Assembly (NCBI GenBank): GCA_039189765.1
Contig: JBCCYL010000012.1
Coordinates: forward strand, 32,001-96,000
Direction: 5' to 3'
Length of the DNA stretch: 64,000 nt
Source of the DNA: Cyanobacteria bacterium P01_F01_bin.150
GTDB lineage: Bacteria; Cyanobacteriota; Cyanobacteriia; CAKZMO01
The notes below the pieces were generated by a model. It was not told where the DNA came from, searched no databases, and was given only the letters and a program-made list of their open reading frames with translations. Made by a program: the position numbers and the translations under genes. Positions 1,840 through 38,977 of the stretch are shown here, piece by piece. How positions within the stretch are numbered: position 1 is the stretch's first letter; each line of letters starts with the position of its first letter.

Positions 1840-3525
1840 CTAGAAGAAATTAGAGTTTACTTCAAGATCAGCAACCCAAAACTCTAGCTGCACATAGTTT
1901 CTAGTCTTCACTTGCGCGGATCGCCTTCCTTTTCTTTTGTTCTTCCCTCTTAGTTGCCCCGCAGGGCTGGATTCCCTTGTCAGTTCAAGGGGTTCCGCTT
2001 GCGCGGATTCCTGCTGCTCCGATCCCATTGCCAAAAGGCTAGAATCCTTCACAGGCTTAAGTTTCCCAGCGAAAGCCGGGTACCTTCTTTTAGAAGCTTT
2101 TTGCATATCCATCGTTCCGCGCATTCCCATTTTGTAACGCTGGGTTAGCTCAGAACGAATGACTACATTTTTAGCTGCATTGATATCTGCATTCTCGCTA
2201 TGCCCACATGCAGTACAAACAAATTCTGATTGCGACTTACGGCTGTTTGCATCGACAGTCCCGCACTTATTACAGGTTTGGCTATTGTAGTGCGATGGAG
2301 TTAACTTAAGCTCAGTGCCTAATGCTTTGGTTTTCGCCTGAAGCATTAACTTAAATTGACCCATCCCAACGTTCAGCAACGACTTATTAAGCCCTGTCTT
2401 TTGCTTAGCTTTATTCGACTCATACCCTTTCCCAACTTTACGCAGTTTAGGCTTAGGACGTTTAACCATGTTTTTGATAGCATTTTCTTCTAGCGCTATC
2501 GCCCCATATCTCTTGGTGATAATACTAGAAATCTCATGGTTGCGGAGCTTTCGTTGTTTGGCAATTCTCTCATGCAATAATTTGATCTTAGCCAATGTCT
2601 TACGGTAGTTTGAACTCCCTTTGATCTGCCAAGATAATTTACGCTGCAACCTTCTGAGACGCTTCTGAGAGTCTTGATAATAGCGAGGGAAATGATAAGT
2701 TCTCCTGTCACTACAAGCAACCCCAACGGCTACACCCGGATCAATGCCAACACACTGGTCGGGATGCTGTACTTTGGCCTCATCTTTTATCTTCCCGACT
2801 AGCATCAAGTAATAGCCAGAAGACTTTTTGAGAATACGATAACTTTTGATTTGCAGATCTTCAGGCCATCGCCCTTCTAAGCCTCTAACCTTTACTTTAC
2901 CTAGCTTTGGCAACTTGATGCATTGAGGGTCAATGAATTTAGCATTGCCCGACTGGGTATTATTAAGAGTTTTATTGCCGCCTCTGCGCTTGAATTTCGG
3001 TGATTTACGCTTCCCTTTTTTATATTCCTGCCAAGACGTTGCCAATAGCTTAATAGTGCCCTGGGTCAGCTTATATGGGCAAGCTTTGAACCATGGCTTA
3101 TCTGGATGCAACTTATGAGCAAACTTAGGAGTTAGTGAATACTCGCTATCCCTGTCAATCCTAGGCTTCACATAACCCTGAGGGCGAGGGCAATGCTGCC
3201 GGAACTTCCCAATTTTGCCGTGACCACTTTCACAGTATGGGATAGGCAAATAAGTAGTGCGAAGCTTATCGTTTACAGGCAAGCTCTCAATAATTGAGCG
3301 ATCACGCCATTCCGTCTCTTCATTTAACGGCACATAACGATATTCCCATGGCACAGGACAGCACGGCGCATAAGCTTTGTCATGCTTATTGTATGTTGCA
3401 AATTTCTCAAATTCTTTGAGCATAGCTAACCCAGAATTCCACACCCAGCGCTGCACATCCAGCCATTGATCAATACTTTGCTGTTGGACGGTATTCAGGT
3501 ATAACTTGCACTCGATTGTTTTCAC
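1840..3525 (-). CDS. tnpB: TnpB RNA-guided endonuclease (IS200/IS605 family), enlarged to 561 aa
   Basis: N-terminal HTH_OrfB-like segment (KLYLN...RWVWN), RuvC-I GIDPG, RuvC-II IALEE, CNKC/CTAC zinc ribbon, RuvC-III NADINAAKN. Confidence 0.92.
   Translation of the reverse strand: MKTIECKLYLNTVQQQSIDQWLDVQRWVWNSGLAMLKEFEKFATYNKHDKAYAPCCPVPWEYRYVPLNEETEWRDRSIIESLPVNDKLRTTYLPIPYCESGHGKIGKFRQHCPRPQGYVKPRIDRDSEYSLTPKFAHKLHPDKPWFKACPYKLTQGTIKLLATSWQEYKKGKRKSPKFKRRGGNKTLNNTQSGNAKFIDPQCIKLPKLGKVKVRGLEGRWPEDLQIKSYRILKKSSGYYLMLVGKIKDEAKVQHPDQCVGIDPGVAVGVACSDRRTYHFPRYYQDSQKRLRRLQRKLSWQIKGSSNYRKTLAKIKLLHERIAKQRKLRNHEISSIITKRYGAIALEENAIKNMVKRPKPKLRKVGKGYESNKAKQKTGLNKSLLNVGMGQFKLMLQAKTKALGTELKLTPSHYNSQTCNKCGTVDANSRKSQSEFVCTACGHSENADINAAKNVVIRSELTQRYKMGMRGTMDMQKASKRRYPAFAGKLKPVKDSSLLAMGSEQQESAQAEPLELTRESSPAGQLRGKNKRKGRRSAQVKTRNYVQLEFWVADLEVNSNFF
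1950..2085 (-). ncRNA. Putative TnpB omegaRNA scaffold (overlaps tnpB 3' part; ends approximate)
   Basis: TACCCGGC-TTTC-GCTGGG hairpin, AAGCCTGTG, GCAGGAATCC and TCCGC-GCAA-GCGGA GNRA hairpin, resembling IS605 right-end RNAs. Confidence 0.55.
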
Positions 3526-9676: not shown

Positions 9677-10666
9677 CTAAGCGGCTTTTACTAATTTGCT
9701 ACTTATATTAGTGGCCTTATACTGCTTTTTGCGCGGCTTTAGCTTTCGACGCTGGTGAACAAGTTCAATATCGAGATAGTAAAGATTGCATTCTGGACGA
9801 AATGTTTTGTTTGAACAAGAAAATCGTCTTTTGCAATAATCAACCATTTCAGAATCGAATTCGTTTTGATATTCACGAATACACTCTTTCCAGTCAACTG
9901 AGCCTTCACCAGTATCTTTGGCAATCTGCACCTTGATCGTGTTCGCTAACCGTCGGGCAATCGTTGAACGATGACGCCCCAGAGATTCTCCAATGCGTGA
10001 TTGGGAAGCGCCAAAAGAATGAAAGCTTGGCTTGACGAAAAGGTAACGCTTTGATCTGAAATAAGCCTGTTCAGCGAGTGCCCCCATGTAGGGGTAACCC
10101 ATCCCACCAGGAGTAGGGTTGCCACAAAACTCACTGCTACCTATTAGATCAGCATAATCTCTTGTCATGCAGGATTCCTGTTGAAAGATTTGCTCAACAG
10201 TTACCATGCTCGCCTTCTCTTGCTTCCTAAGGCTCTTCCTTCTTAGCCAAATTGTTGTATTCTGACATCGCTCTGCCGATGCTTGAGTTGCTTTGCTCAA
10301 TATGATGGGCAACTCATAAGCAAACAAGCGAAACATTGGGGGTAGGTCGTCAATCCCTAAATGATCACGCAACTTGCGGTCCGATCGATACCGCACAACA
10401 GCAACACCGCCGGACACGCTCACTTTATAGAAGCAACCCCGCTTTAGAGCCAGTGACAAGTTCTTGCGAACTGTACTAGCTGCACATCCCAAACTATCCG
10501 CTGCATGCTCCAACGAAAAAGTGGCCCAACCTGAGCCACTCCCATCAAGCATCCGAGCAAAATAATAAACCCCAGCAACACAGCCCAGCGTATCCACCAA
10601 TATCGAACTGGCGATCGCGCTGCTATTTGGGCTTAGTGTCGTCGGGGTCGGGGTCGGGTTCTTCAT
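9677..10666 (-). CDS. Putative replication initiator/HTH DNA-binding protein
   Basis: Two HTH-like segments (SLEHAADSLGCAASTVRKNL; SQSRIGESLGRHRSTIARRL) and a basic tail; downstream of a CopG-like gene. Confidence 0.5.
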   Translation of the reverse strand: MKNPTPTPTTLSPNSSAIASSILVDTLGCVAGVYYFARMLDGSGSGWATFSLEHAADSLGCAASTVRKNLSLALKRGCFYKVSVSGGVAVVRYRSDRKLRDHLGIDDLPPMFRLFAYELPIILSKATQASAERCQNTTIWLRRKSLRKQEKASMVTVEQIFQQESCMTRDYADLIGSSEFCGNPTPGGMGYPYMGALAEQAYFRSKRYLFVKPSFHSFGASQSRIGESLGRHRSTIARRLANTIKVQIAKDTGEGSVDWKECIREYQNEFDSEMVDYCKRRFSCSNKTFRPECNLYYLDIELVHQRRKLKPRKKQYKATNISSKLVKAA

Positions 10667-10886
10667 TTAGCAGTCGCTTTATAGCGTCTTCCGCCGAGAT
10701 TCCTTTTAGCCGTGCATAAGAGTCTATTTGCTCACTAATCTCTTGTCGATGAAGCTCCACCCAATCAGTCACAGCTCTGTTAATGGCGGCTGATTTTGAT
10801 TGTCCGTGCAGAGCTGCCCACAACATCAGAAAAGTGTCGTCATATTCACTAAACGGGCTTATCTGGAATCTAGGCTTTGCCATCAA
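10623..10886 (-). CDS. RHH/CopG-like regulator
   Basis: PRFQIS...WAALHGQSKSAAINRAV pattern. Confidence 0.6.
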   Translation of the reverse strand: MMAKPRFQISPFSEYDDTFLMLWAALHGQSKSAAINRAVTDWVELHRQEISEQIDSYARLKGISAEDAIKRLLNEEPDPDPDDTKPK

Positions 10887-11077
10887 CTTCTCTCCAACGA
10901 CTGATCAATTATCACATGCAGCAATAATTCCCAGCCACGAACGCACTATGAATGCAATTTGTATCGCTTTTAGATCGATATTGGATCGAAATCAATATGT
11001 TTATGTTAGCATATTGATATGGCACGTGCCACGGCACATAAACATAAGTTCCCGTAGTACATGCCAAGTGATGATGA

Positions 11078-11407
11078 TTGATATTCGATGTAAACCTAAT
11101 GACAGAGAGAGTGGAAGCTAAATTTGATGACACGCCACGGTATGGCCCCGATCAGGTGCGATGGGTGCTGTCACGTGTGAGGGGTAAAACACTGTCCGAC
11201 AGAACCTGGATGCGGTACCTGAAATATGGCCGAGTTTCTAGGGATGAGGATAAGATGTATGGCCCAAGTGAGCTAGTGCATTTGATGGATTTAGCAATAC
11301 ATCTCTTGCATGGCGGGACTTACGGCGAATTTGAAGAGATTAAATTTGGGGGCGGGCCAAAACCAGTTAACCCCGCTCAAGTAGATGTTCAATATGAGGT
11401 GATTTGA
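11078..11407 (+). CDS. HTH (MerR/excisionase-like) DNA-binding protein
   Basis: LSDRTWMRYLK...MYGPSEL; likely start at MTERVE (11099). Confidence 0.5.
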   Translation: MIFDVNLMTERVEAKFDDTPRYGPDQVRWVLSRVRGKTLSDRTWMRYLKYGRVSRDEDKMYGPSELVHLMDLAIHLLHGGTYGEFEEIKFGGGPKPVNPAQVDVQYEVI

Positions 11408-11874
11408 AGATGGCGATTAATAAAGGATTCGGTGAAGGCAACAGCGCAACAAAGCAATCTAAGACGGAGCCTAAAAGCACTTCAAAGGCTAGCTCTGAAA
11501 AGGTTTCAGCATCTGCTTTTGACATCGTTAACCAAGGTTCTCAGTCAGCCCAGATGATTGAGGGGTTGCTGCAAAATAACGGTGCAGCACTGAATGAAAG
11601 TGTTGATCGATTGGCGGATCAACGAGAGCAAGAAATAGGGATGAATATGGCCATGAGATTGCATCCTGACGTACAGGCGGCAAGGGCTTTGGGCTACGCG
11701 GTAAATTTTCTCAGCAATTGCGATCGCAGTCCCGTAGATCTTTCGCGTTTGGGGCAGTCGCAGGCGTTGCAACCTGTACAGCCCTTGCAGCTTGCATCTT
11801 TGCAGCACTTGTACGAGGCGAGAGCGTCTCACGGGAAAGCCCAGCAGATCCAGGGCAGCAGCGAACAGAAGTAG
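11404..11874 (+). CDS. Hypothetical protein
   Basis: 156-aa ORF coupled to upstream gene. Confidence 0.6.
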   Translation: MKMAINKGFGEGNSATKQSKTEPKSTSKASSEKVSASAFDIVNQGSQSAQMIEGLLQNNGAALNESVDRLADQREQEIGMNMAMRLHPDVQAARALGYAVNFLSNCDRSPVDLSRLGQSQALQPVQPLQLASLQHLYEARASHGKAQQIQGSSEQK

Positions 11875-12002
11875 AAGCAATCGCACCCGTAAAAAGGTGT
11901 GAGGCAAATAGGCATTCTGTAAATTACAGGTATCAGCTTTTGTCTTGTCGGCAGCTTGAAAAAAATAATTCCGATTTCTGGGATTCTGGGCAAAAATGAA
12001 CG

Positions 12003-12056
12003 ATGCATTGGGGGTTCCAGCCTTTTTCGATGCAGTGATGCAGTGGAAATGCAGTG
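12003..12056 (+). repeat. 8-bp direct repeats ATGCAGTG (x3, plus one 1-mismatch copy)
   Basis: Copies at 12030, 12038 and 12049; ATGCATTG at 12003. Confidence 0.7.
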
Positions 12057-12074
12057 AATTAAGGAGGTGATTTT

Positions 12075-12383
12075 GTGGTGAATCGACGCTCAATAAACGT
12101 ATTTTTAGGCGGTGTAGTTGGATGCGCGATCGCCAGTTTTGGGTACTTAGTTTGGTATATGGCAGATGATGGTGAGTTGTCTGCTCGGGGCACAAGAGAC
12201 ATGATTATTTGCATGGTCAGTGTTGGTGGGGGCGCAACGGTTGGATCTCTGATTGGCCATATAGGCACTGGGAAAAAGCTCAGCACAGAAGAAGTGGTTC
12301 GTTATTGGCTTCAACAAAATCAGACTATCTTGTCTCTCAGTCCTGAAGCGATGGCAGAGATTAAGGAGGTTGTCGATGCTTAA
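12075..12383 (+). CDS. Two-TM membrane protein
   Basis: AAGGAGG RBS; two hydrophobic segments. Confidence 0.7.
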   Translation: MVNRRSINVFLGGVVGCAIASFGYLVWYMADDGELSARGTRDMIICMVSVGGGATVGSLIGHIGTGKKLSTEEVVRYWLQQNQTILSLSPEAMAEIKEVVDA

Positions 12384-13101
12384 GGTATTAGGACTTTTTC
12401 GGCATTGGCCAATCCTTCTTTTGGCCTCGCTGCTTATTGGCTCAGCCATAAATGGGCGCAAGACTGAACAACCAACTGTTGTTAGCCCAGAGATTGATGA
12501 AAGGCTGTTGGACTACGTGGCTGAATCTGGTGAGCGTGGCAAGCAGATTGAGGAGCGCTTAAGTACAATCGAGCAAGCTGCATTGCCTACAGTCCAGCAA
12601 CAGCAAGCCGACCAAAAAGAAATTATGACAACTCTCAATGAGTTCCGTGATTTTGATAAGCACGCCTGGGGAGTTTTTGATGCCATGATCTTGGCTAAGT
12701 CCTGGGAGATGTTTGACGAAGCTGACCGCTTAGCTCGTGAGAATCATCATTCTATTGAATGGGAGATTGCAGCAAAAGCGACTAGTGTAAAGGACCAGTT
12801 ATTCGCTCTATCTAATCCTCAGCAGGGCTTGATATCAATGGCGGATGGTCCGCAAAGAGACCAGTTTAGCGATGTAGTTACAGATGCCTTGGCTCTATCT
12901 GCATTGATGGGGCAATTGATGGCTGACTCTAGCCCTAACCGAACTGAGGTTAATTCAAAAGCATTGGTTAGCGCATCTGAGTCCCTCAGTTCAGCTTTGT
13001 ATAGTACTGCTTATCGCAATATTCCACTAAGGACAGTAGGACTTCCCCAAGTTAAGCCGTTTGAAGAGCAACAGGACGAGGTGCAGAATGCCTCAAACTG
13101 A
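12370..13101 (+). CDS. Membrane-anchored coiled-coil protein
   Basis: N-terminal hydrophobic helix followed by helical Q/E-rich body. Confidence 0.7.
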   Translation: MSMLKVLGLFRHWPILLLASLLIGSAINGRKTEQPTVVSPEIDERLLDYVAESGERGKQIEERLSTIEQAALPTVQQQQADQKEIMTTLNEFRDFDKHAWGVFDAMILAKSWEMFDEADRLARENHHSIEWEIAAKATSVKDQLFALSNPQQGLISMADGPQRDQFSDVVTDALALSALMGQLMADSSPNRTEVNSKALVSASESLSSALYSTAYRNIPLRTVGLPQVKPFEEQQDEVQNASN

Positions 13102-14338
13102 AGCGAAAGTCCCTAACCCCCATTTAGCGTTGGCCTCTTTAGTTTGTAGTGCATCTGCTGCGTTGATAGGGTGGAATTCATTGGGCACCAGTTTAAACGG
13201 AATCCTTCAAGCGTCTACGTTTGCTGTCCCTCTTCATTATGTTGGAGTTGGCATTCGAAAAAAAAATCAGCTTACATGGTCTGACCATAAGGCGATCGCT
13301 CCTATGATTTGGTCTGCCCTAGTCGATGGAGCTAAAGCTGAACAGCAGTCAACAATTGCTCCGATGATTAAGGAAATGAGGGCTATTCCTGGCGTGGATC
13401 GCATAAACATCCCGTCTTTGGACTTATCTCCATTACTTAATCATTCGACAATTGTCACGGCTCCTACAGGGACAGGAAAGAGCTTTTTTATGAGTTTGTT
13501 GTTAACCGAATGGATTAAAGCAAATCCCGGATGTCCATTAAAGATTTGCACGATTGATACATTCAAACGTAATCAGACTTGGATGGGAATAGGGTTGCAG
13601 CTTTCATGGATTCAGCGAATGTACATTACTCTTGGCTATAAATACAGGGACCATGCTAAAGATTTTTCTACGGCTATTCACTTAGAGACAGTAGACGAGG
13701 TTTCTAGGCTTTATAACCTTATGCAATCTCGTTCGGAGGAAAGGGCACAAGTTGGCCCAAATGGAGAGATGGACTTAACCCCATCTCTTGTAGTCATTGA
13801 TGAACTTCCCGAATTTTTAGGGTTTCTCAATGACAAAGAAAAATTTCCGGAAGGCCCGGAAATTAGGCGTCAATTAAAAATGCTTCTAACCCGTGGTCAA
13901 GGCTGGAATTGCTTAGTTTATGGCATAGCTCAGGATGATGCAGTTGGAATGCTTGGCTTTTCTCAAGCGGAAAAGAAGCAGGTCATGTTATGCAATCTGT
14001 ATAACGAGACTGTTTCTGGCAACGGCGATCGCGCTGCACTTATTAACAGCATTAAAGGTCGTCGGTTCCTTTTGGAGCATGGGGGCAAGGGTGTAGTCAT
14101 GCCCATTCCGCATTTGGACAAAGAACCCGAAATTGACTTTTCACACTTGACAAAGGACGGCAGCTTTTACGCATGGATAGAAGAACTTAAGCCATTGATT
14201 GTCAAGTTCAAAGAGCAAGGGGCATCAATTACTGAGGTTTGGCGTGAGTTAACTAGTCGTGCTGATTTTCCTGGTAAAAAACGTAATGGAACGGACAACC
14301 CCCATTACGCGTATTTCACTGATCAAATCTGGAGATAA
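13061..14338 (+). CDS. FtsK/HerA-superfamily P-loop ATPase with N-terminal membrane anchor
   Basis: Walker A TAPTGTGKS, Walker B LVVIDE, RG arginine finger and IAQ motif; likely start MPQTEA (13088). Confidence 0.8.
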   Translation: MKSNRTRCRMPQTEAKVPNPHLALASLVCSASAALIGWNSLGTSLNGILQASTFAVPLHYVGVGIRKKNQLTWSDHKAIAPMIWSALVDGAKAEQQSTIAPMIKEMRAIPGVDRINIPSLDLSPLLNHSTIVTAPTGTGKSFFMSLLLTEWIKANPGCPLKICTIDTFKRNQTWMGIGLQLSWIQRMYITLGYKYRDHAKDFSTAIHLETVDEVSRLYNLMQSRSEERAQVGPNGEMDLTPSLVVIDELPEFLGFLNDKEKFPEGPEIRRQLKMLLTRGQGWNCLVYGIAQDDAVGMLGFSQAEKKQVMLCNLYNETVSGNGDRAALINSIKGRRFLLEHGGKGVVMPIPHLDKEPEIDFSHLTKDGSFYAWIEELKPLIVKFKEQGASITEVWRELTSRADFPGKKRNGTDNPHYAYFTDQIWR

Positions 14339-14341
14339 GTT

Positions 14342-14557
14342 ATGAAGTTGGATAAATTTTGCGTGATTTTTGTGGGCGGAGCTTTACTGCTCGGAATTAT
14401 CACCCCCGCTGATTTTACTGAAACACTGAAGGGTATGCTTTGGACTGGGTTCCAAGCAGCGGGGGTGATTGATAAGCAGGTCGAGAGCAGCAATGAAGAA
14501 GTTAAGGAGCGCGATCGCCCATGGAACCAGAAGGTCAAGGTCAACATCAACGAATAG
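14342..14557 (+). CDS. Small membrane protein
   Basis: Hydrophobic N-terminus then GIITPADF. Confidence 0.6.
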   Translation: MKLDKFCVIFVGGALLLGIITPADFTETLKGMLWTGFQAAGVIDKQVESSNEEVKERDRPWNQKVKVNINE

Positions 14558-14745
14558 AGCCTAAAACGCCTTGGTTTGTTGATCTGGAAAATACTTTGTT
14601 CTTCCTGATTGGGTTAGCGTGCTTTGTTGTCGGCTGCGACCTGATAGGCGTTAACCCAATCCATTTTATGGGGGATAAGTTAGGAGATTCGTTTGAGTTG
14701 GTGCATGGATGGGTAAAAGATTACGGAGAGGACTCAAGTGATTAG
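14521..14745 (+). CDS. Small membrane protein
   Basis: TM helix then GVNPIHF. Confidence 0.55.
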   Translation: MEPEGQGQHQRIEPKTPWFVDLENTLFFLIGLACFVVGCDLIGVNPIHFMGDKLGDSFELVHGWVKDYGEDSSD

Positions 14746-14917
14746 CTTTACCACATTGTTTTGGCGATTACTTTTACTGACCACGATCACGGGGTTTTGT
14801 GGCAAAGACCCGATTACATTTTTTGTCCACATGCCTGAAGATTTCATGGATGGGTTTAACGATCATCCCGCTGAGCTTCGGTATCGTCCCGGTTGGCAGA
14901 ATTGGGGACAGTTCTAA
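14738..14917 (+). CDS. Small membrane protein (59 aa, not in ORF track)
   Basis: GTG after GAGAGGA; VISFTTLFWRLLLLTTITGFCGKDPITFF...; stop overlaps next ATG (TAATG). Confidence 0.55.
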   Translation: MISFTTLFWRLLLLTTITGFCGKDPITFFVHMPEDFMDGFNDHPAELRYRPGWQNWGQF

Positions 14918-16263
14918 TGGAATGGGTAACGATTGATGTTCCGAATGATGTAGAAACAGGACTGACCACTAGAGAAAAGGGTGGTGGATGGGTCTGGGGT
15001 AAAGCAGGATCTCCGGAAGATCGGCAAACTGCACAGAGCAAAAAGCTTACTGAAGAGCAACGACTTCGTGATTTGGCTGAAGCCATGGGTGGGGTAGCAG
15101 CCGCAAAAGTGCAGGACGCAAAATCGGCTGCTGCTCAAAGAGCGATTAGTTTTGCGGCTGCTCCGGTGCGAAGTGTCTGGGAGGCGCATAAGCAAAATTT
15201 GCAACTCACTTGCATGGTTCTCGGGGTGATTGCTATTCATGGTTCGGTTAGCTGGATGCGCCCTGCATTGAATACTGCATTTTCAGTTGCTACGTTTGAC
15301 CCAATGGGTAGGCTTATAGATGAATTTAAGCCTGTTAGCTTTTCCAGCCAAGATACCACCCCACTGAAGAAAGGTGATCGCGTTGGTGAATTCATTGTGA
15401 CCAGTGGATTTGGCCATAGAAATGCACCTACCGCAGGAGCGTCAACATTTCATCGTGGAGTTGACCTGAATACTCCTACAGACACTCCTGTTTATGCCCC
15501 AAAAGCAGGGAATGTAGACTGTCAATACGAAGCTGAAGGTTATGGCCATTACATTAATGCGCAGTGGGGAATGATTGGCCATTTAAGCGAATGTTACGGA
15601 GGATTCAAGCAGCAGGGAGACTTGATAGGATTGACGGGCGCAACGGGGATAGGAACTGGCCCCCATGCTGACATTCGAGAGGGAGCACATCCTAATTTCA
15701 TAAACCCTACGAGGGGCTTTGTAGAGGCAGTGATGGGCATCCAATCTCAAAAAGGGGTAAATCTCACCAGTCATACAATCTCAGCCACCGCCAACACCAA
15801 AGCGTTTCTTGATGTGATCGCATGGGCCGAGGGTTCGGACTACGATACGTTAGTTGGCGGTGGGAAGATCCACGATCTGTCTCATCATCCAAATCAGCGA
15901 GTCTGGATCAACACGATTAACGATTACTCCACAGCCGCAGGCAGGTATCAGTTCATCGATACGACGTGGAATCAATATTCCAGGGATTTAGGTTTACGCG
16001 ATTTTTCTCCAGCGTCTCAAGACAAAGCAGCGATCGCCGTTCTTGCCAACAATGATGTCCCAGGGATGCTGGAGCGCGGAGCTATAGAGCAAGCTTTCTG
16101 TGCAGTGGGCAATGTATGGGCGTCGTTGCCGTGCAATAGCTATGGTCAACCTCAAGAAAACAGTGATGAGCTAGTCCAGAAATATTATGAGTTCGGTGGT
16201 GGGAGCCTGCACCCTCCTCGATCGCGCACGTTGGATTTATTGAATAGAGGAGAAAGGATTTAA
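14917..16263 (+). CDS. Membrane-anchored M23 peptidase + lambda-type lysozyme (GH104-like) fusion
   Basis: TSGFGHR...HRGVDL...GPHADI (M23); AFLDVIAWAEG...STAAGRYQF...WASLP (muramidase). Confidence 0.88.
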   Translation: MEWVTIDVPNDVETGLTTREKGGGWVWGKAGSPEDRQTAQSKKLTEEQRLRDLAEAMGGVAAAKVQDAKSAAAQRAISFAAAPVRSVWEAHKQNLQLTCMVLGVIAIHGSVSWMRPALNTAFSVATFDPMGRLIDEFKPVSFSSQDTTPLKKGDRVGEFIVTSGFGHRNAPTAGASTFHRGVDLNTPTDTPVYAPKAGNVDCQYEAEGYGHYINAQWGMIGHLSECYGGFKQQGDLIGLTGATGIGTGPHADIREGAHPNFINPTRGFVEAVMGIQSQKGVNLTSHTISATANTKAFLDVIAWAEGSDYDTLVGGGKIHDLSHHPNQRVWINTINDYSTAAGRYQFIDTTWNQYSRDLGLRDFSPASQDKAAIAVLANNDVPGMLERGAIEQAFCAVGNVWASLPCNSYGQPQENSDELVQKYYEFGGGSLHPPRSRTLDLLNRGERI

Positions 16264-16463
16264 TGGCATGGGCAAACGATTCGATTAAGCTGCCAGCAGC
16301 ACAACGTATATTTCCGAAGTTTCAGATAGAGCCACACAAGATAGACGGGAATGCCGCATTCTACACTGCTGAAGTGAATGGGCAGATGATGCAGTCTACG
16401 GCGTTAACGGTTTTGTGTGAGCGGATAGTAAAAGTATTGATGGGGGCAGAGGATGAGAATTAG
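16263..16463 (+). CDS. Small hypothetical protein
   Basis: TAATG coupling, RBS. Confidence 0.55.
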   Translation: MAWANDSIKLPAAQRIFPKFQIEPHKIDGNAAFYTAEVNGQMMQSTALTVLCERIVKVLMGAEDEN

Positions 16464-16624
16464 TTTTTGCATCAGTTGCATAGGAATTCCGTTGTTTCAA
16501 CCATTGACTCCATGGGGTAGATTACGGTTTGGCGTTAAGTGGAGGCCAGGGCATTTTTGCAAAGCTTCTCCGAAACCGTATATTTTCTTTTTTGATTCGT
16601 GGATTAAGTATAGAGGCAAAGTCC

Positions 16625-17125
16625 GTGAGCAGCGGTAAAGTGCATGACTTCGCAGGTAAGGCAACGGTAGGCGCAACACTTCCCATTGCAGTGGTTTATC
16701 TCCCCGTGGACCTAGCGATCTGCTACGGCCTGTTTAGCATATTAGGCTTTACTCACCTTGGTCCAGACCTGGACAGCAATAACTTTAGGGCCAACACCAT
16801 CCGCCGATGGGGAAGGGCAAAATGGCTGTGGTATCCGTTCAATCGGTTAGTCAGCCCTCATCGTGGCCCTACTCACGTTCCGCTGTTGGGAGCCGCTTTG
16901 GTTTTGTTTTGGCTACTGTTATTGACTGGGGCAGTTGGGCTGATTGCCGTGATGAATGGATGGGTGAGCTTGCCTAGTTTTGAGGTTCGGTGGCTGTGGT
17001 ATTTGTTTGTGGCGTTTGTAGCGGTGGCTATTCAGCATGTGGTGCACTTGGCCTTTGATGGCTACCGCTTGTGCCAAGTAGCAGTTGGAGTAGGGGGTGC
17101 GGTTGTATTAGGGATGATTTTGTAG
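16625..17125 (+). CDS. DUF2227-like putative metal-binding membrane protein
   Basis: MSSGKVHD...GPDLD...RRWG...HRGPTH...HVVHLAFD; start moved to GTG 16625. Confidence 0.8.
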   Translation: MSSGKVHDFAGKATVGATLPIAVVYLPVDLAICYGLFSILGFTHLGPDLDSNNFRANTIRRWGRAKWLWYPFNRLVSPHRGPTHVPLLGAALVLFWLLLLTGAVGLIAVMNGWVSLPSFEVRWLWYLFVAFVAVAIQHVVHLAFDGYRLCQVAVGVGGAVVLGMIL

Positions 17126-17272
17126 GGGGATGTGATAGATAAAAAGTAACTGGGCAGTATTTCATGGTGCGATCAAAATATCCGGCCACACCAGCAGAGA
17201 GGTGGCCAACATGCATGCTTCAAGGCACCCCAGGTCCGCATTTTGTAAAGTGAAGAGAGTAGGAGGGGAAAG

Positions 17273-17596
17273 GTGAGTTTTGAAACTATTTATGCATTAG
17301 CAAAGAGTCGCGGACTCAAGTTCTGTTCTTTTCGCGAGTTAGAAGATGACTTTATTTGGGTTTCGTTTGCATGGCCTGGTGGAATGAGACTTGTAAACGG
17401 AGATAATTGGCCAATTCCAGATTATCAGATAAAGAAAAGCGAATTGCTTGATTTAATGAAGCCAATGGCAGGGAGGTGGAGAGATACCGCTTTTGCAAAA
17501 AAGCTAACAGAAAAAGGGTATGCTGTTCAGCCATGGGAGATCAAGCCGATCAAAGATCCTCCTCAAACAAACTCCGCTCCGCCTTCCGCCTCCTAG
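17273..17596 (+). CDS. Hypothetical protein
   Basis: AGGAGG RBS; 107 aa. Confidence 0.55.
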   Translation: MSFETIYALAKSRGLKFCSFRELEDDFIWVSFAWPGGMRLVNGDNWPIPDYQIKKSELLDLMKPMAGRWRDTAFAKKLTEKGYAVQPWEIKPIKDPPQTNSAPPSAS

Positions 17597-18359
17597 CAAG
17601 CCCCGGCACTAACTCCAGTTTGCCATCGCCATCTTGATCGCCTTTATTCCATAACTCAAACGCCGCAGCCGCCTCACGGTAGTTGCGGTTATTTATTTCT
17701 CTGAGCACAGTTGAGTCACCGAAGCCACCCGCCCCAATGTTGTAGCAAAGCAACACACAGGCGCTAAACATATTGCTGCCAATGGGGTAATGTAAGCGGG
17801 ACCATACAGCAGACTCGAAAAACTCCAGGTCTTTAGCCAGCAATTTGTTCGCGTCAGCTTCGCTGATTGTCTTGCCGTTGCGAACATCCGCACGGGTGAC
17901 GCTCTTTGTGTGGCCCCATCCAATAGTGGGATGACCAGTGGGGCAGATGTAGGCTGCAAATGGCTTATTAGGGAGGCCGTTACCTTCGAATTCTTTCAAT
18001 ATGGCGATCGCTTTTTCGTTAGTGCGCTGCCTGGGCACATAATGGCCATCCATGATCAGCTTGCCCAGCGCTGCCCCCGTTTGCGGACCAAATACGCCAT
18101 CGGGTTTAACCGAGTAGTTAATACTCAACTTAGTTTGCAGTGCGATCATCTTTGCCCCTGTAGCTGGCAATCGTTGCACCCATTCGCTTGGGAGCTTGCC
18201 GTTAGCGAATACTTCCCCCATGGCTCGGCCTGTTTGGCCCCCAAAAAGCCCATCCTCGGCTAAAGGGTGGGCAGGGAGAACCTTATTTAATGAGGATTGG
18301 AGCTGATGAGCAAGCTTTGGTGTAGCTAGGGACGTTATCAGATGGTCTGCTGCAAGCAT
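17550..18359 (-). CDS. Endolysin: PG-binding repeats + GH24 lysozyme
   Basis: DGLFGGQT/DGVFGPQT repeats; EFEG...YICPTGHPTIGWGHT; GLARRRKAE. Confidence 0.92.
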   Translation of the reverse strand: MLAADHLITSLATPKLAHQLQSSLNKVLPAHPLAEDGLFGGQTGRAMGEVFANGKLPSEWVQRLPATGAKMIALQTKLSINYSVKPDGVFGPQTGAALGKLIMDGHYVPRQRTNEKAIAILKEFEGNGLPNKPFAAYICPTGHPTIGWGHTKSVTRADVRNGKTISEADANKLLAKDLEFFESAVWSRLHYPIGSNMFSACVLLCYNIGAGGFGDSTVLREINNRNYREAAAAFELWNKGDQDGDGKLELVPGLARRRKAERSLFEEDL

Positions 18360-18390
18360 AATTCATCTGCGCTAGAAGTTCAAGTGAATT

Positions 18391-18396
18391 ATTCCC
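18391..18396 (-). promoter_or_regulatory. Putative phage late promoter core GGGAAY (endolysin)
   Basis: GGGAATAAT about 31 nt upstream of ATG; shared with other late genes. Confidence 0.55.
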
Positions 18397-18441
18397 AGGA
18401 ACAGTATTGATGTAGTATTTGACACTTTACTCTACTCTGCA

Positions 18442-19719
18442 ATGATCGTCACTTTAGCCTGTCTAATTTTCGTGCTCTTTCAAAGTGTCATCACGCTAAT
18501 TACTCAGAAATCCAACGCTGAGAATTATGCAGCTAGGCAATATTCAATGGCTCGGTTAGACGAATTGACAGGGCTAGGAAATAGGCGAGCTTTTACGGAG
18601 GCATGCTCAGAGTGGGTGAATAGGGATGACTTTATTGTGGTCAGAATAGATTGCAATGGACTGAAACGCGCCAATGATGTTTATGGGCATGAATTTGGTG
18701 ATCGAATCATTAAAGAGACCGCTCAGAATATTAGTAGGATTTGTCGCACTGGCCAAGCATTCCGTACCGGGGGGGATGAGTTTACGATTTTCTGGGACGC
18801 GGATATCGAGATTAATTCCTTGGCCCAGAAGTTTTCTTACTCCCTGAATGTTTTTGTTGAGGATATGGATTACAAAATTTCTTGTGCAATCGGATTAGCT
18901 CACAAGCATTTATTCGTATCACTCCACGAAGCTGTTTGTGTTGCAGATGAAGAGATGTATCGATCCAAAATAAACAGTCTAGACTGGAGTGTGTGTGATG
19001 ACTTTGACATGAGTCTTTATCGCATTGCACAAGGGCTCAAAACTGAATTTGGCAGCACTCGTCACTTAGAGCTTCATTATCAACCGATAATACATTTAAC
19101 ATCTGGTCAGATTACATCCTATGAGGCGTTGATCCGTTGGAATCGAGACAGCGGATTTGTTGAACCGACTAACATATTGGCTGCGGTAAAAAAGTATCAT
19201 TTATCTGTTGATTTTGCACTGTGGACGCTTCGGCAAGCCCAACAACAATGGGACACTTGGGGACGCCCTCCTATCACAATTGCCGTCAATCTCTCTGGGT
19301 CTTGGTTGTTAAAGCCAGCAGTATTTAATGCAGTGGCCCGTAGTCAGGGATTGACTATTGAAATAACAGAGGATGAGGCTATCGAAGACCCTAAGATCCT
19401 CGATAAAATAGATGAATTGCGCACACTCGGGATAAAAATATCCATTGATGATTTTGGGGCGCGTTGGTCAGCGATTGCTCAGCTAAGCAGGCTCAGTGAG
19501 AGTTGCGATCGGGTGAAGATTGACAAGGCGCTGCTCAAGGATATTCGGTTATTTGAGGGGGCGCACGGCCTGATAGATTCGCTGAATCTGCCGACAGTGG
19601 CTGAGGGTATAGAAACTCAAGACATGTTGATCGCAATTAGGGACGCTGGTGGGCAATTTGGGCAGGGTTACCTGTTGGGCAGGCCGATGAAGGGTAGTGA
19701 TATTGGGATGGGGGAATAG
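18442..19719 (+). CDS. GGDEF-EAL c-di-GMP metabolising protein with N-terminal TM helix
   Basis: DELTGLGNRR, NDVYGH..GD, RTGGDEF; YQPI, EALIRW, EITE, IDDFG, KIDK, AEGIE, QGY. Confidence 0.93.
   Translation: MIVTLACLIFVLFQSVITLITQKSNAENYAARQYSMARLDELTGLGNRRAFTEACSEWVNRDDFIVVRIDCNGLKRANDVYGHEFGDRIIKETAQNISRICRTGQAFRTGGDEFTIFWDADIEINSLAQKFSYSLNVFVEDMDYKISCAIGLAHKHLFVSLHEAVCVADEEMYRSKINSLDWSVCDDFDMSLYRIAQGLKTEFGSTRHLELHYQPIIHLTSGQITSYEALIRWNRDSGFVEPTNILAAVKKYHLSVDFALWTLRQAQQQWDTWGRPPITIAVNLSGSWLLKPAVFNAVARSQGLTIEITEDEAIEDPKILDKIDELRTLGIKISIDDFGARWSAIAQLSRLSESCDRVKIDKALLKDIRLFEGAHGLIDSLNLPTVAEGIETQDMLIAIRDAGGQFGQGYLLGRPMKGSDIGMGE
19712..19717 (+). promoter_or_regulatory. Putative late promoter core (holin/M15 operon)
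   Basis: GGGAATAGT 38 nt upstream of start. Confidence 0.5.
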
Positions 19720-19755: not shown

Positions 19756-19998
19756 GTGGTAAGCAGCAGGGCTAATTTAGTCAGACTTTTACAGAGCACA
19801 AATGGGAACGTTCATTTACTAGCGATTGCCGCTGGTTTTTTGTTCTTTTTCCCAACCGTCACACAGGTGTTAGACCGACCGGATCTGTCTGTTTGGGAAA
19901 GAACCGAAATGCTGTCTATTGCTGTTGGAGAATTGCTTTTTACATTAGGGGCCGCGTCTGCATCCCCTGAAACATTCCTTGACGAGGATGATGATTAG
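19756..19998 (+). CDS. Putative holin-like two-TM protein
   Basis: AGGAGG RBS; two hydrophobic helices; near lysins. Confidence 0.45.
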   Translation: MVSSRANLVRLLQSTNGNVHLLAIAAGFLFFFPTVTQVLDRPDLSVWERTEMLSIAVGELLFTLGAASASPETFLDEDDD

Positions 19999-19999
19999 C

Positions 20000-20107
20000 A
20001 TGTTTGCAGTATGGGTGATTGCCTTGCTTGTTCCCTTGGTGTGCATCTCAATTTATCAGGCCGTGAAGACAATCGACGCAACCGACGACTTTGATAAGAG
20101 GCAATGA
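20000..20107 (+). CDS. 35-aa single-TM peptide (not in ORF track)
   Basis: MFAVWVIALLVPLVCISIYQAVK...; ATGA overlap with next gene. Confidence 0.45.
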   Translation: MFAVWVIALLVPLVCISIYQAVKTIDATDDFDKRQ

Positions 20108-20745
20108 GCACTTACCCAAACAGGAATGATGTTACATATTCATGGGTCAGGCGATCTCTGGATGGAGCGAATGATGTCCCAAAAGAGGAGCTGAAGCTTT
20201 ACCTGTGTGAACGCAATACAAAGCACATTGTCGGATATCGATACAGAGCTGACAATCGAGACAAATTTGTTTGCACAATGGCCTATGAAAAATTCAAACA
20301 GTCTAACCATCATCTTGAATTTCGCCCCGTAACAGAGCGCCGTGGTTCGCTTGCTGTGGATATGTGGCGAGGCAAAGAGGCCGGATGGCAGTACGTTGGG
20401 ACCGGAATGTACAGCGCCTATTATCGTTTCCCTGGGGTGGCCAAACCTTATTGGAGGAACGACCCAAAAGAGCTGGTGATGGATGAAAAATACTTAGTGA
20501 ATGCTCCCAGCCTATCTGCATTCACTTCAAGCGGGGTGAAAGGTGAATATAGCGCGGTATGGCCAGGGATTTATCTGGGTCAGCCATACCGCAATAATCG
20601 CAACGAACTGAATTGGGCAATTCTCAGGCACCCAGGCTTGTTCTATCGTTCCACTGGGGAATTGGCAGCAAAAGCTGAATGGGCCAATGTAATGAGTCTG
20701 TCTGTTGATTGGTGGATGCCGTTACCGAAGCTAGGGAGGGATTGA
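20104..20745 (+). CDS. Hypothetical protein
   Basis: 213-aa ORF in operon. Confidence 0.6.
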   Translation: MSTYPNRNDVTYSWVRRSLDGANDVPKEELKLYLCERNTKHIVGYRYRADNRDKFVCTMAYEKFKQSNHHLEFRPVTERRGSLAVDMWRGKEAGWQYVGTGMYSAYYRFPGVAKPYWRNDPKELVMDEKYLVNAPSLSAFTSSGVKGEYSAVWPGIYLGQPYRNNRNELNWAILRHPGLFYRSTGELAAKAEWANVMSLSVDWWMPLPKLGRD

Positions 20746-20746
20746 A

Positions 20747-21448
20747 GTGAGAGTTACTGCACTTGTTGATACGTATTTGAAAAAAGATCAGTCGAAACAG
20801 GCTTTTGAGCTGCCTGACAACGAAAAAGTTTTTGTTGAGGCTGGGCGAGTCTATACGGTGGACCCGCTGGAGTTTGAAAACGACGATCACACTAATCCAT
20901 TAGCATATGGCCACGCCAAAATTGACATAAGTTATGGAGCGGGGGAGTGGTGGATATTCCTAGATCATTGGCGATATGAGCATGAGCAATCAGTAGTAGA
21001 AGTCCCAACTGTGTTGCCAGAATGGGACACCGTTGACTGGAATAATTTTGCAGCTCCAGTGTCAAAATACTTCACGGTAGGCGAAGTGATGAACATGTCC
21101 AAAGCTCGCATGCCTAAGGCGATTGAAGTAAAGCGCAATATCATCAAAATCGCCCGTGCTGTTGATCAAGTGAGAGAAGAATGGGGAGGACCTCTAGGCG
21201 TTACATCATTTTATCGTCCGTGGCATATTAACCGGAGAATTGGGTCGAGGTCGAGCAACCATCCAAGGGGTACTGCCATGGATATTCGATGCTTGCGAGG
21301 GAACACAAAGGGGTTGGAGCGAATGGTAGAGAATGACTTTTACAACGCTGGCCGCTGGGATGGCGGGGTCGGTCGAGGCGCTAGCTATAGAGGGTTTGTC
21401 CACCTTGACTTAAACGACGAGTACGGAAAACGCATCTGGAATTACTAG
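20747..21448 (+). CDS. Peptidase M15A family endolysin
   Basis: TSFYRP..N..IG..SNHPRGTAMDI...FVHLD; N-terminal cyanobacterial DTYLKK domain. Confidence 0.88.
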   Translation: MRVTALVDTYLKKDQSKQAFELPDNEKVFVEAGRVYTVDPLEFENDDHTNPLAYGHAKIDISYGAGEWWIFLDHWRYEHEQSVVEVPTVLPEWDTVDWNNFAAPVSKYFTVGEVMNMSKARMPKAIEVKRNIIKIARAVDQVREEWGGPLGVTSFYRPWHINRRIGSRSSNHPRGTAMDIRCLRGNTKGLERMVENDFYNAGRWDGGVGRGASYRGFVHLDLNDEYGKRIWNY

Positions 21449-38200: not shown

Positions 38201-38977
38201 ATGAAAGACTTGACTAAAGCCGATCGCAATCGACGGATTGTGGTGGCTACTCTTAATTATTTCCATCAATGGATAAAAAGAGGTCGTAAAGATGATGATC
38301 CACTTAGGCGGAGGATAATCGAAGAAAACATTGGCTTAGCAGGAAAAGCCGCAACCAAGTTATGCAGAGTCTCTCCTGTCCCCAAAGAGGACTTGTATCA
38401 GGTTGCTGTCATCGGTCTTGACAAGGCGGTTCGACGGTTTGACCCAACAAAGGGAACCTCTTTTAGCCACTTTTCTAAGACATATACTGAAGGCGCAATT
38501 AAGCAATATTTGAGGGACAAAGAAGGGGTGTTGGTCCGTACGCCGCGCAAAAATACAGACGAGATCACCACTCTTCCAAGTAAAGTAAAACGATTTAACA
38601 AGGCTCATAAAACTAGCGTTCATGTTGATGAGGAAGGCATGGCTAACCTGAGGGGCTATTCATCTGAAGAGTACCGAGAGATGAGTCAGTCTACCCACAG
38701 ATCATCTATTGGATCGCTCGATGCATTTGAAAATTTTGAGGTGAGCTACGATGCCCCTAACTATTTAGAGGAAGCAGAGTATAGACAGCAGATGAGCAAT
38801 GCGGTTCAATGGCATTTGTCTCAATTGGGCCACACTGGCAGGCTCATTCAAGAGCATTACCATCCTGATTTCGACCTATCCATCAGTGCCATTGCCAGCC
38901 GCCACAAACTTAAGCCGACTGAAGTTGAACAGAGGATAAAGGCTGGTTTGCAACAAATTAGGGAGGCGATCGCATAA
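38201..38977 (+). CDS. Phage sigma-70 family (SigF/SigB-like) sigma factor
   Basis: IEENIGLA...EDLYQVAVIGLDKAVRRFDPTKGTSFS...GAIKQYLRDK; C-terminal HTH. Confidence 0.9.
   Translation: MKDLTKADRNRRIVVATLNYFHQWIKRGRKDDDPLRRRIIEENIGLAGKAATKLCRVSPVPKEDLYQVAVIGLDKAVRRFDPTKGTSFSHFSKTYTEGAIKQYLRDKEGVLVRTPRKNTDEITTLPSKVKRFNKAHKTSVHVDEEGMANLRGYSSEEYREMSQSTHRSSIGSLDAFENFEVSYDAPNYLEEAEYRQQMSNAVQWHLSQLGHTGRLIQEHYHPDFDLSISAIASRHKLKPTEVEQRIKAGLQQIREAIA

Follow-up and report, generated by a model that had tools for sequence, protein, structure and literature searches.

The 64-kb stretch of Cyanobacteria bacterium P01_F01_bin.150 DNA analysed here, which we call the window, is part of a tailed-phage genome and contains, between 12075 and 16263 on its plus strand, a block of open reading frames (ORFs C–I) encoding small membrane proteins, a membrane-anchored ATPase and a membrane-tethered peptidoglycan hydrolase. 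The same arrangement is present in the Planktothrix phage PaV-LD and on two plasmids of Oscillatoria acuminata PCC 6304. We tentatively propose that, in cyanobacterial mobile elements, this block may translocate DNA across the whole envelope in a conjugation-like manner, an interpretation we rate as plausible if somewhat short of probable. A sequence-only reading of the window had earlier described a TraB/FtsK-like transfer operon inside a tailed phage; its observations largely hold, while its interpretation is partly supported.

According to the proposed mechanism, the N-terminal helices of the ATPase would anchor it, presumably as a ring, in the cytoplasmic membrane, where it would form a channel complex with protein C (two transmembrane (TM) segments), the single-pass protein D and the single-helix proteins F, G and H. 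The tethered hydrolase, protein I, which combines an M23 peptidase with a glycosidase, would open the peptidoglycan locally, and the motor would push the DNA of the element outward, into an adjoining trichome cell or a different filament. Such transfer would be conjugation-like, driven by one FtsK-type motor and without VirB4. We infer that the proteins act as one complex and that DNA is the substrate, as well as the direction and destination of transport. The combination of an FtsK-branch motor, four to five small membrane proteins and a tethered bifunctional hydrolase follows the logic of minimal DNA-transfer machines.

Gene content and conservation of the module

From 11078 to 17125 every real gene lies on the plus strand. 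The ORFs of this run and the one beyond it are listed below with lengths in amino acids (aa); hydrophobic segments were assigned with a Kyte-Doolittle script and a 19-aa window.

11078–11407 (+): ORF A, 109 aa; first gene of the run
11404–11874 (+): ORF B, 156 aa; soluble, low complexity
12075–12383 (+): ORF C, 102 aa; hydrophobic segments 9–27 and 43–61; first gene of the conserved core
12370–13101 (+): ORF D, 243 aa (241 aa from the ATG at 12376); N-terminal single membrane segment and a helical domain
13088–14338 (+): ORF E, membrane-anchored ATPase, 416 aa
14342–14557 (+): ORF F, 71 aa; hydrophobic segment 6–24
14521–14745 (+): ORF G, 74 aa; hydrophobic segment 26–44
14738–14917 (+): ORF H, 59 aa; weakly hydrophobic N-terminal segment 2–20 (score 1.38)
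14893–16263 (+): ORF I, M23 and lambda-R-type hydrolase, 456 aa; membrane segment 103–121
16263–16463 (+): ORF J, 66 aa; soluble
16529–17125 (+): ORF K, 198 aa; polytopic, four to five hydrophobic segments; DUF2227 (putative metal-binding), E 4.5e-15
17273–17596: ORF L; overlapped by the 3′ end of a GH24 lysozyme gene

The description of these genes as one tightly coupled operon applies to most junctions: neighbours overlap by 4 nt (A/B), 14 nt (C/D), 14 nt (D/E, with the ATG of E at 13088) and 1 nt (I/J), F/G, G/H and H/I overlap as well, and only 3 nt separate E from F. It does not extend across the gaps of 200 nt between B and C (11874–12075) and 65 nt between J and K. Shine-Dalgarno-like motifs precede most starts, with a strong AAGGAGG before ORF C. 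Repeat, promoter and terminator scans of the region did not exceed what shuffled sequence gives: 7 promoter-like sites, with 10.9 expected, and 10 terminator-like sites, with 8.8 expected.

Several membrane proteins had been predicted, and C, D, F, G, H and I do carry hydrophobic segments; ORF B has none, nor do A and J. F, G and H are indeed three tiny membrane proteins with one segment each, that of H being weak. ORF A gave no match when compared with the Pfam, PHROGs, NCBIfam and PADLOC libraries, so its designation as a helix-turn-helix (HTH) regulator is unconfirmed. ORF D has no family match in the library scans, and an Atlas search yielded no usable match; because D is predicted to be helical, a VirB8-like (NTF2) fold is unlikely.

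A distant blastn search with 11078–17125 and a tblastn search with ATPase E found no match in 50,697 phage records, and tblastn of ATPase E against 72,556 plasmids matched one record, pOSCIL6304.02 of O. acuminata, whose 481-aa ATPase scores E 5.6e-56 against a hidden Markov model (HMM) of the family. On its sister plasmid, pOSCIL6304.01, the genes are arranged alike, and the two plasmid ATPases share 80% identity. With the plasmid ATPase as query, the sole match in the phage records was PaV-LD ORF127, annotated as “FtsK/SpoIIIE protein” (NC_016564; family HMM E 1.4e-53), and the PaV-LD ATPase in turn found only itself among phages. The order shared by these loci is a small TM protein, a single-pass protein of 245–365 aa, the ATPase, two to three small proteins, and a membrane-anchored M23 peptidase with a glycosidase. 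The related blocks read, in gene order:

pOSCIL6304.02: parM; 71-aa ORF; 77-aa ORF (one segment); 364-aa ORF (one segment); ATPase (two N-terminal segments)
pOSCIL6304.02, continued: 144-aa ORF (one segment); 83-aa ORF (one segment); 375-aa protein with one membrane segment, M23 and GH108
PaV-LD: ORF129 (143 aa, two segments); ORF128 (269 aa, one segment); ORF127 (ATPase)
PaV-LD, continued: ORF126, ORF125 and ORF124 (102, 79 and 120 aa); ORF123 (TM segment and M23, “peptidase”); ORF122 (GH108, “endolysin”)

By position, ORF C corresponds to PaV-LD ORF129 and to a 96-aa protein of pOSCIL6304.01, each with two segments, and ORF D to PaV-LD ORF128 and to Oscillatoria proteins of 354 and 364 aa. 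ORFs A, B, J, K and L have no counterpart in the PaV-LD or Oscillatoria modules, and on this sequence comparison the conserved core is 12075–16263 (ORFs C–I). The window genes are evidently real, as ATPase E and D have relatives of about 51–52% identity. The relative of D, P0018 (52% identity), may lie beside the ATPase relative P0002; that both contigs are listed at 27,981 nt is the sole observation that suggests this fifth locus.

The PaV-LD block (ORF129–ORF122) is the closest true relative, resembling the window in gene order, sizes, positions of hydrophobic segments, a homologous M23 domain and a filamentous host. It differs in having the hydrolase split into two genes and a GH108 rather than a lambda-R glycosidase, and the ATPases are very distant (21–23% identity over about 200 residues). 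Only four window ORFs match PaV-LD at E ≤ 1e-4; besides the module these are the portal and one 774-aa protein, so the module is among the few things the two phages have in common. The Oscillatoria plasmids share with the window the module order, the ATPase family and a fused, membrane-anchored M23 plus glycosidase, but have a plasmid instead of a phage backbone, two rather than three small proteins after the ATPase, and GH108. The setting in a filamentous cyanobacterium proposed earlier is borne out, in that every carrier identified has a filamentous host.

A ParM/StbA gene (L001, 4576–5586; L005, 4315–5325) is located upstream of the module on both plasmids, separated from it by two small ORFs, and the module is divergent from an HTH regulator and a primase-like DUF5906 gene. 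The annotation of pOSCIL6304.02 includes ParA, an integrase and, far from the module, a MOBP relaxase, but no phage structural genes; pOSCIL6304.01 is typed as non-mobilizable. The window module is itself divergent from a ribbon-helix-helix-like gene (10623–10886) and an HTH-containing gene (9677–10666).

The genes of the PaV-LD block are not new, being partly annotated and two of them studied. ORF123 and ORF124 were investigated as a lysis module, and the paper mentions neither ORF127 nor ORF122 (PMC9096620). The main text of the paper on Aphanizomenon phage CL131 does not mention FtsK, SpoIIIE or M23. In the literature on PaV-LD, cyanophage FtsK and cyanobacterial plasmid conjugation, with Gao et al. 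2012 and supplements outside its scope, we found neither an ATPase-centred multi-gene unit nor its occurrence on plasmids. What would be new, then, is a conserved unit centred on the ATPase, its presence on plasmids, and a predicted single-motor module of the FtsK branch in cyanobacterial phages and plasmids.

The phage identity of the window follows from PHROGs matches to the following genes:

47787–55370 (−): tape measure protein, 2527 aa
60413–62899: portal, E 1.2e-63
62942–63913: large terminase TerL, E 1.4e-53

The length of the tape measure protein implies a very long tail. The nearest named relatives of the portal are those of CL131 and PaV-LD, at 25–27% identity. The GCGATCGC (HIP1) palindrome, a cyanobacterial hallmark, occurs 56 times in the window, evenly spread, with 0.85 copies expected from shuffled sequence; six sites fall within the roughly 6 kb of 11078–17125. 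The guanine-plus-cytosine (GC) content of the module, 0.45–0.49, is the same as that of the rest of the window. We reject recent capture from outside the cyanobacteria, as both module GC and GCGATCGC density match the surroundings. The suggestion of a captured plasmid module gains substantial support from the presence of the same module on two O. acuminata plasmids; by composition, it is not a recent import.

Placement of the ATPase among translocases

ATPase E contains a Walker A motif, APTGTGKS (G130-K131-S132), and a Walker B motif, VVIDE (D238-E239); G130, K131, R215, E239, A285, V286 and Y407 are invariant in an alignment of 15 sequences, and D238 is nearly so. A word-indexed search with ATPase E returned the protein itself and one relative (P0002, 51% identity), while searching 1.84 billion representatives exhaustively with a profile yielded 15 proteins at E ≤ 1e-3, nine at E ≤ 1e-10 and six at E ≤ 1e-30. 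One member, P0010, is a hypothetical protein of a cyanobacterial metagenome-assembled genome (MAG). GTDB species genomes gave one weak, P-loop-only match in a proteobacterial MAG (L003), which was not used. By these searches, ATPase E is a member of a rare family of its own. The Atlas structure neighbours, which comprise clusters named FtsK/SpoIIIE and cyanobacterial hypothetical ATPases, indicate a family somewhat larger than HMMER showed; one cluster, “FtsK/SpoIIIE protein” (475 aa), has 55 members, 67% of them viral.

An AlphaFold2 model built from the 15-sequence alignment has a mean predicted local distance difference test score (pLDDT) of 79.4, exceeding 82 from residue 110 onward; a model from a two-sequence alignment was unusable (pLDDT 44). 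The model has N-terminal helices at 11–32 and 36–60 and a small helical C-terminal domain of four short helices at 352–415. N-terminal hydrophobic segments are present in 14 of the 16 ATPases P0001–P0016, and one of the two exceptions is a fragment. A complex prediction with three copies of residues 108–416 (score 0.13, mark 0.42) was uninformative either way.

A single-sequence phmmer search of ATPase E against PDB returned nothing meaningful. The 15-member profile matched the EssC FtsK/SpoIIIE structure 4nh0 (E 1e-6, positions 112–277) and, likewise from Walker A to past Walker B, EccC5 (5.5e-4), FtsK 2iuu (0.027) and TcpA 6o1w (0.21). HerA entries in this search matched 30–60 residues at the P-loop only (best 8j4u, 9e-7), and the weak Pfam match to DUF87/HerA (E 1.9e-4, below cut-off) covers 35 residues at the same place. 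The best Foldseek match in PDB was TcpA of plasmid pCW3 (E 1.8e-6, 274 columns, root-mean-square deviation (rmsd) 6.5), and further neighbours included the FtsK motor (2ius/6t8b) and EccC; DnaB and RadA had similar scores but an rmsd above 16. No VirB4, VirD4/TrwB or HerA entry was among the 31 rows listed from ranks 1–50. Alignment of the family profile with single fetched references using hhalign gave the following probabilities and lengths:

pIJ101 Tra: 91%, 114 columns
E. coli FtsK: 87.7%, 141 columns
VirB11 (R388): 83.3%, 24 columns
TcpA (pCW3): 81.8%, 136 columns
TrwB (R388): 53.6%, 37 columns
TrwK/VirB4 (R388): 37.2%, 56 columns
TcpF (pCW3): 1.6%, 61 columns

Alignment spans from hmmsearch followed the same pattern. 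In hhalign, Foldseek and the PDB profile search alike, homology beyond the P-loop is to FtsK, Tra and TcpA rather than to VirD4, VirB4 or HerA. A maximum-likelihood tree joins FtsK, Tra and TcpA in one group (100/99) and sets 18 cyanobacterial family sequences apart from it, in three subgroups. The window sequence falls with P0002–P0007 (100/99), whereas the ATPases of the Oscillatoria plasmids group with that of PaV-LD and with P0013, P0014 and P0016 (90/91); the root is a midpoint root only, and TcpA and P0007 are long branches. Based on these profiles, the predicted fold and the tree, ATPase E is an enzyme of the FtsK/TraB/TcpA translocase branch that forms a separate lineage. The sequence-only reading had named a membrane-anchored FtsK/HerA-type ATPase and had proposed deciding between TraB/TcpA, type IV coupling proteins and HerA. 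The FtsK part of that name stands by both profile and fold, the HerA part only at the P-loop, and the enzyme groups with translocases and not with a non-translocase family.

Since the same profile matches protein-secretion ATPases, the module could instead export small proteins encoded nearby through a hydrolase-opened wall, with ATPase E akin to the type VII secretion ATPases EssC and EccC but having a single domain. The matches to EssC 4nh0 and EccC5, the Foldseek match to EccC, and the presence of small proteins and single-pass membrane partners are consistent with this. Type VII ATPases, however, have several FtsK-like domains, and their systems carry WXG100-type substrates; here there is one ATPase domain, the library scans matched neither WXG100 nor any other secretion family, hydrophobic segments are present in every one of the small proteins, and the best fold matches are the DNA-handling proteins TcpA and FtsK. 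We therefore regard protein export as highly improbable.

A32-like packaging ATPases are among the weaker fold matches of ATPase E in BFVD. A tectivirus-like packaging module, in which an FtsK/HerA-type ATPase is accompanied by small membrane proteins and a transglycosylase, was rejected because the phage has its own TerL and portal and because of the plasmid copies.

The PADLOC family mad8, part of the MADS system, matches the ATPase domains of the window (13088–14338; E 3.3e-4), PaV-LD (L004, 6611–8038; E 5e-8) and Oscillatoria (L001, 7275–8720; E 2e-9), a hint that MAD8 and this FtsK-branch family are related. The module could thus be a defence or exclusion system in which a membrane ATPase blocks the entry of competing phages or plasmids; defence genes are common on mobile elements. 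MAD7 and MAD8 are described as an ATPase-nuclease module (PMC13662399). The PADLOC match, however, concerns one of 12 window proteins scanned and only its ATPase domain, and MADS is an eight-gene operon (mad1–mad8) whose other functions (methyltransferase, kinase, nuclease) are not in the module. We also know of no defence system with a membrane-anchored M23 plus glycosidase, and consider defence or exclusion the faintest of prospects.

The wall hydrolase and the lysis explanation

Protein I was described earlier as a membrane-anchored M23 peptidase fused to a muramidase, and its domains agree. An N-terminal region of about 100 aa precedes the membrane segment (103–121), an M23 domain at approximately 166–273 (Pfam E 2.9e-9) and a glycosidase at 301–436. 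Similarity to lambda lysozyme (1am7, E 6.9e-29) identifies the C-terminus as a lambda-R-type lysozyme/transglycosylase, a domain we take to be GH104-like. In the M23 domain the HxxxD motif is kept and HxH reads H-A-D. The M23 motifs of pOSCIL6304.02 are canonical, while in pOSCIL6304.01 (L005, 9182–10321) HxxxD is lost and HxH kept, so some copies of the module may have a degenerate peptidase domain. A degenerate LytM domain is also reported for PrgK (bioRxiv 2024.02.15.580431). The window has a lambda-R-type glycosidase, PaV-LD and Oscillatoria have GH108; three of the four loci encode the glycosidase as a fusion with M23, PaV-LD being the one in which the two are split. That the glycosidase has been swapped while the architecture is kept shows selection for a tethered peptidase and glycan cutter beside the motor.

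Other candidate wall-cutting genes and their neighbours lie beyond the module:

17550–18359 (−): GH24 lysozyme with peptidoglycan-binding repeats (Pfam); alone on the minus strand, convergent with the plus-strand run
19756–19998 (+): 80-aa small ORF with two hydrophobic segments, upstream of the M15_3 gene
20104–20745 (+): 213-aa ORF with no assigned function
20747–21448 (+): M15_3 peptidase, E 3.6e-13

The ORFs at 19756–21448 form a candidate conventional holin-endolysin cassette apart from the module. Of the separate TerL and separate endolysins described earlier, TerL and two further hydrolases that could serve lysis are confirmed.

It is possible that the module itself serves lysis, with F, G and H holin-like, protein I a membrane-tethered (signal-anchor or signal-arrest-release, SAR) endolysin, and the ATPase, C and D either unrelated neighbours or regulators of lysis timing. 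The muralytic enzyme adjoins the small membrane proteins, PHROGs labels its best matches “endolysin”, and its membrane segment is only weakly hydrophobic (1.5), a feature of SAR endolysins. The sole endolysin and peptidase in the annotation of PaV-LD are the module genes ORF122 and ORF123, and the GH24 and M15 genes of the window have no PaV-LD homologue at E ≤ 1e-4. The lysis-module designation of ORF123 (M23, TM-anchored) and ORF124 (one TM segment) comes from expression in E. coli and Synechocystis, where the two proteins are bacteriostatic and membrane-damaging, act synergistically and require their TM segments (PMC9096620). These observations are genuine counter-evidence to a transfer role.

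What speaks decisively against lysis as the sole role is that the complete module, with an intact-looking hydrolase, is found on two plasmids without annotated virion genes. The separate GH24 and M15 hydrolases of the window argue in the same direction. Moreover, the ATPase and upstream membrane proteins keep their position beside the hydrolase in all four loci, relatives of D and the ATPase at similar divergence may share a fifth contig, F, G and H have no detectable sequence similarity to ORF124, and the toxicity of an over-expressed, membrane-targeted muralytic enzyme does not reveal its natural role. Lysis is in our view unlikely, although not strongly so. Because ORF123 and ORF124 have been promoted as tools for lysing bloom-forming cyanobacteria, their natural role would have been misread if they are part of a translocation machine.

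Parallels with DNA-transfer systems and the phage background

Among known systems the pCW3 Tcp locus, whose TcpA is the best solved-structure match of ATPase E, has a comparable set of parts: TcpA has an FtsK-like domain (Pfam), and the small membrane proteins TcpD and TcpE and the bifunctional murein hydrolase TcpG are encoded in one operon. TcpA presumably also has N-terminal membrane helices, as ATPase E does. However, pCW3 additionally has TcpF, TcpH, TcpC and TcpM (which we take to be VirB4-like, VirB6-like, VirB8-like and a relaxase, respectively), none of which was matched in the window scans, and the envelope of its host, Clostridium perfringens, is monoderm. ORF K and TcpI (L008, 36482–36976) of pCW3 resemble each other weakly (BLASTP E 0.027) and have a PDLD...HRG motif in common; TcpI belongs to the YdjM family (E 3.5e-27) and also matches DUF2227 (E 7e-4). 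This may be an added parallel to a conjugation locus, although K is absent from the related modules.

The TraB/Spd systems of Streptomyces (pSVH1, pIJ101) likewise use a single FtsK-like motor with a few small membrane or wall-binding proteins and no VirB4, and pIJ101 Tra gave the highest hhalign probability (91%) of the references tried. TraB and Spd are described as spreading DNA along a multicellular filament and, in the portion of that account used here, without a dedicated murein hydrolase (PMC4447253). The label TraB-like thus holds at the level of the FtsK/TraB/TcpA branch. It does not hold as orthology, the family of ATPase E being a lineage apart from FtsK, Tra and TcpA in the tree; the library scans matched no Spd homologue, 10500–18500 showed no array of clt-like repeats, and no similarity to plasmid TraB genes was found at the BLAST level, only Oscillatoria being matched in the 72,556 plasmids.

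Two further systems share single features with the module. TdtA of the Thermus thermophilus element ICETh1 is a membrane-associated hexameric ATPase that pushes DNA from the donor without a type IV secretion system (T4SS); its partners are a NurA-like nuclease and a restriction enzyme (PMC5365140). The module lacks such genes, and the likeness is by description only. Conjugative T4SSs have a dedicated murein hydrolase (VirB1, PrgK, TcpG-like), to which protein I would correspond; PrgK is a membrane-bound multidomain hydrolase with LytM, SLT and CHAP domains (bioRxiv 2024.02.15.580431). The absence of a recognisable VirB4 or relaxase, observed earlier, is confirmed for every ORF scanned: no window ORF of at least 100 aa matched VirB4, VirD4 or relaxase families, the window being 64 kb of a contig listed at 106,797 nt, with about 43 kb of the element outside it. 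NCBIfam VirB4_CagE reached only E 0.068 and 11.4 bits, against a cut-off of 643.

Besides the points that favour lysis or export, several observations weigh against DNA transfer. Homology across the three lineages is detectable for the ATPase and M23 domain only, the remaining module genes matching by position, size and hydrophobic segments only. None of the 15 family members matches Pfam FtsK_SpoIIIE (PF01580) at E ≤ 0.01, none reaches a Pfam gathering score, and three match DUF87 below the cut-off; the Oscillatoria ATPase gives E 0.0019 and 18.2 bits against PF01580, where the cut-off is 24. The C-terminal domain of ATPase E matches no Pfam family and that of PaV-LD matches HTH_73 below the cut-off (E 0.0074), so that a DNA-reading domain, such as the winged helix of FtsK-gamma or TraB, is only hinted at by model and sequence. 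A repeat scan of 10500–18500 found two-copy, chance-like families only and no clt-like array. Finally, the module has no obvious outer-membrane component, though the cyanobacterial envelope has an outer membrane.

An FtsK/SpoIIIE-like pump might instead rescue genome copies from closing trichome septa, acting with partition functions while the hydrolase remodels the septal wall. The branch of the ATPase and the position of both plasmid modules downstream of parM fit such a role in segregation, and FtsK/SpoIIIE genes of Bacillus phages have been tied to segregation of the phage genome into spores (PMC8597652). However, this job normally falls to cellular FtsK, whatever the DNA; known segregation systems do not require a dedicated bifunctional murein hydrolase together with four to five small membrane proteins; and there is no parM beside the module in the window phage. 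We judge this explanation improbable.

A more specific form of the transfer proposal is that the phages and plasmids pump double-stranded DNA genomes into adjacent trichome cells through septal peptidoglycan opened by the tethered M23/glycosidase. Although this is, to our minds, rather far from likely, it would, if true, represent a virion-independent spread of Caudoviricetes and a cyanobacterial counterpart of TraB/Spd-mediated intramycelial spreading in Streptomyces. A motor module in two barely related phages of filamentous cyanobacteria raises the question of whether their genomes move between the cells of a filament without particles.

The wider DNA-transfer proposal would also bear on how single-motor transfer is distributed. 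In the part of the survey by Guglielmini et al. considered here, such transfer is documented only in Actinobacteria (TraB) and in Firmicutes (TcpA, a coupling protein), homologues of each are reported only in the respective phylum, and cyanobacterial conjugation is described only as the VirB4-based MPF_C class (PMC3548315). A third, cyanobacterial lineage would widen this picture. Of 424 cyanobacterial plasmids, 88% were scored as immobile for want of a VirB4 T4SS (PMC8600333), and for some of these the module could provide a route of transfer.

The phage encodes further proteins outside the module. Directly after the module and the GH24 gene lies a gene for a GGDEF-EAL protein (18442–19719, +; EAL E 1.7e-44, GGDEF E 1.6e-18), a cyclic di-GMP signalling enzyme. 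A 561-aa TnpB/IS605 OrfB-like protein (1840–3525, −) within the phage genome has OrfB_IS605, Cas12f1-like TNB and HTH_OrfB domains. A 602-aa protein (31661–33469, +) has a PcfJ-like domain at its C-terminus (E 2.8e-6), a family that takes its name from a gene on pCF10, a conjugative plasmid. The phage also encodes a sigma-70-type factor (38201–38977, +; Sigma70_r2 E 8.8e-11; phrog_351).

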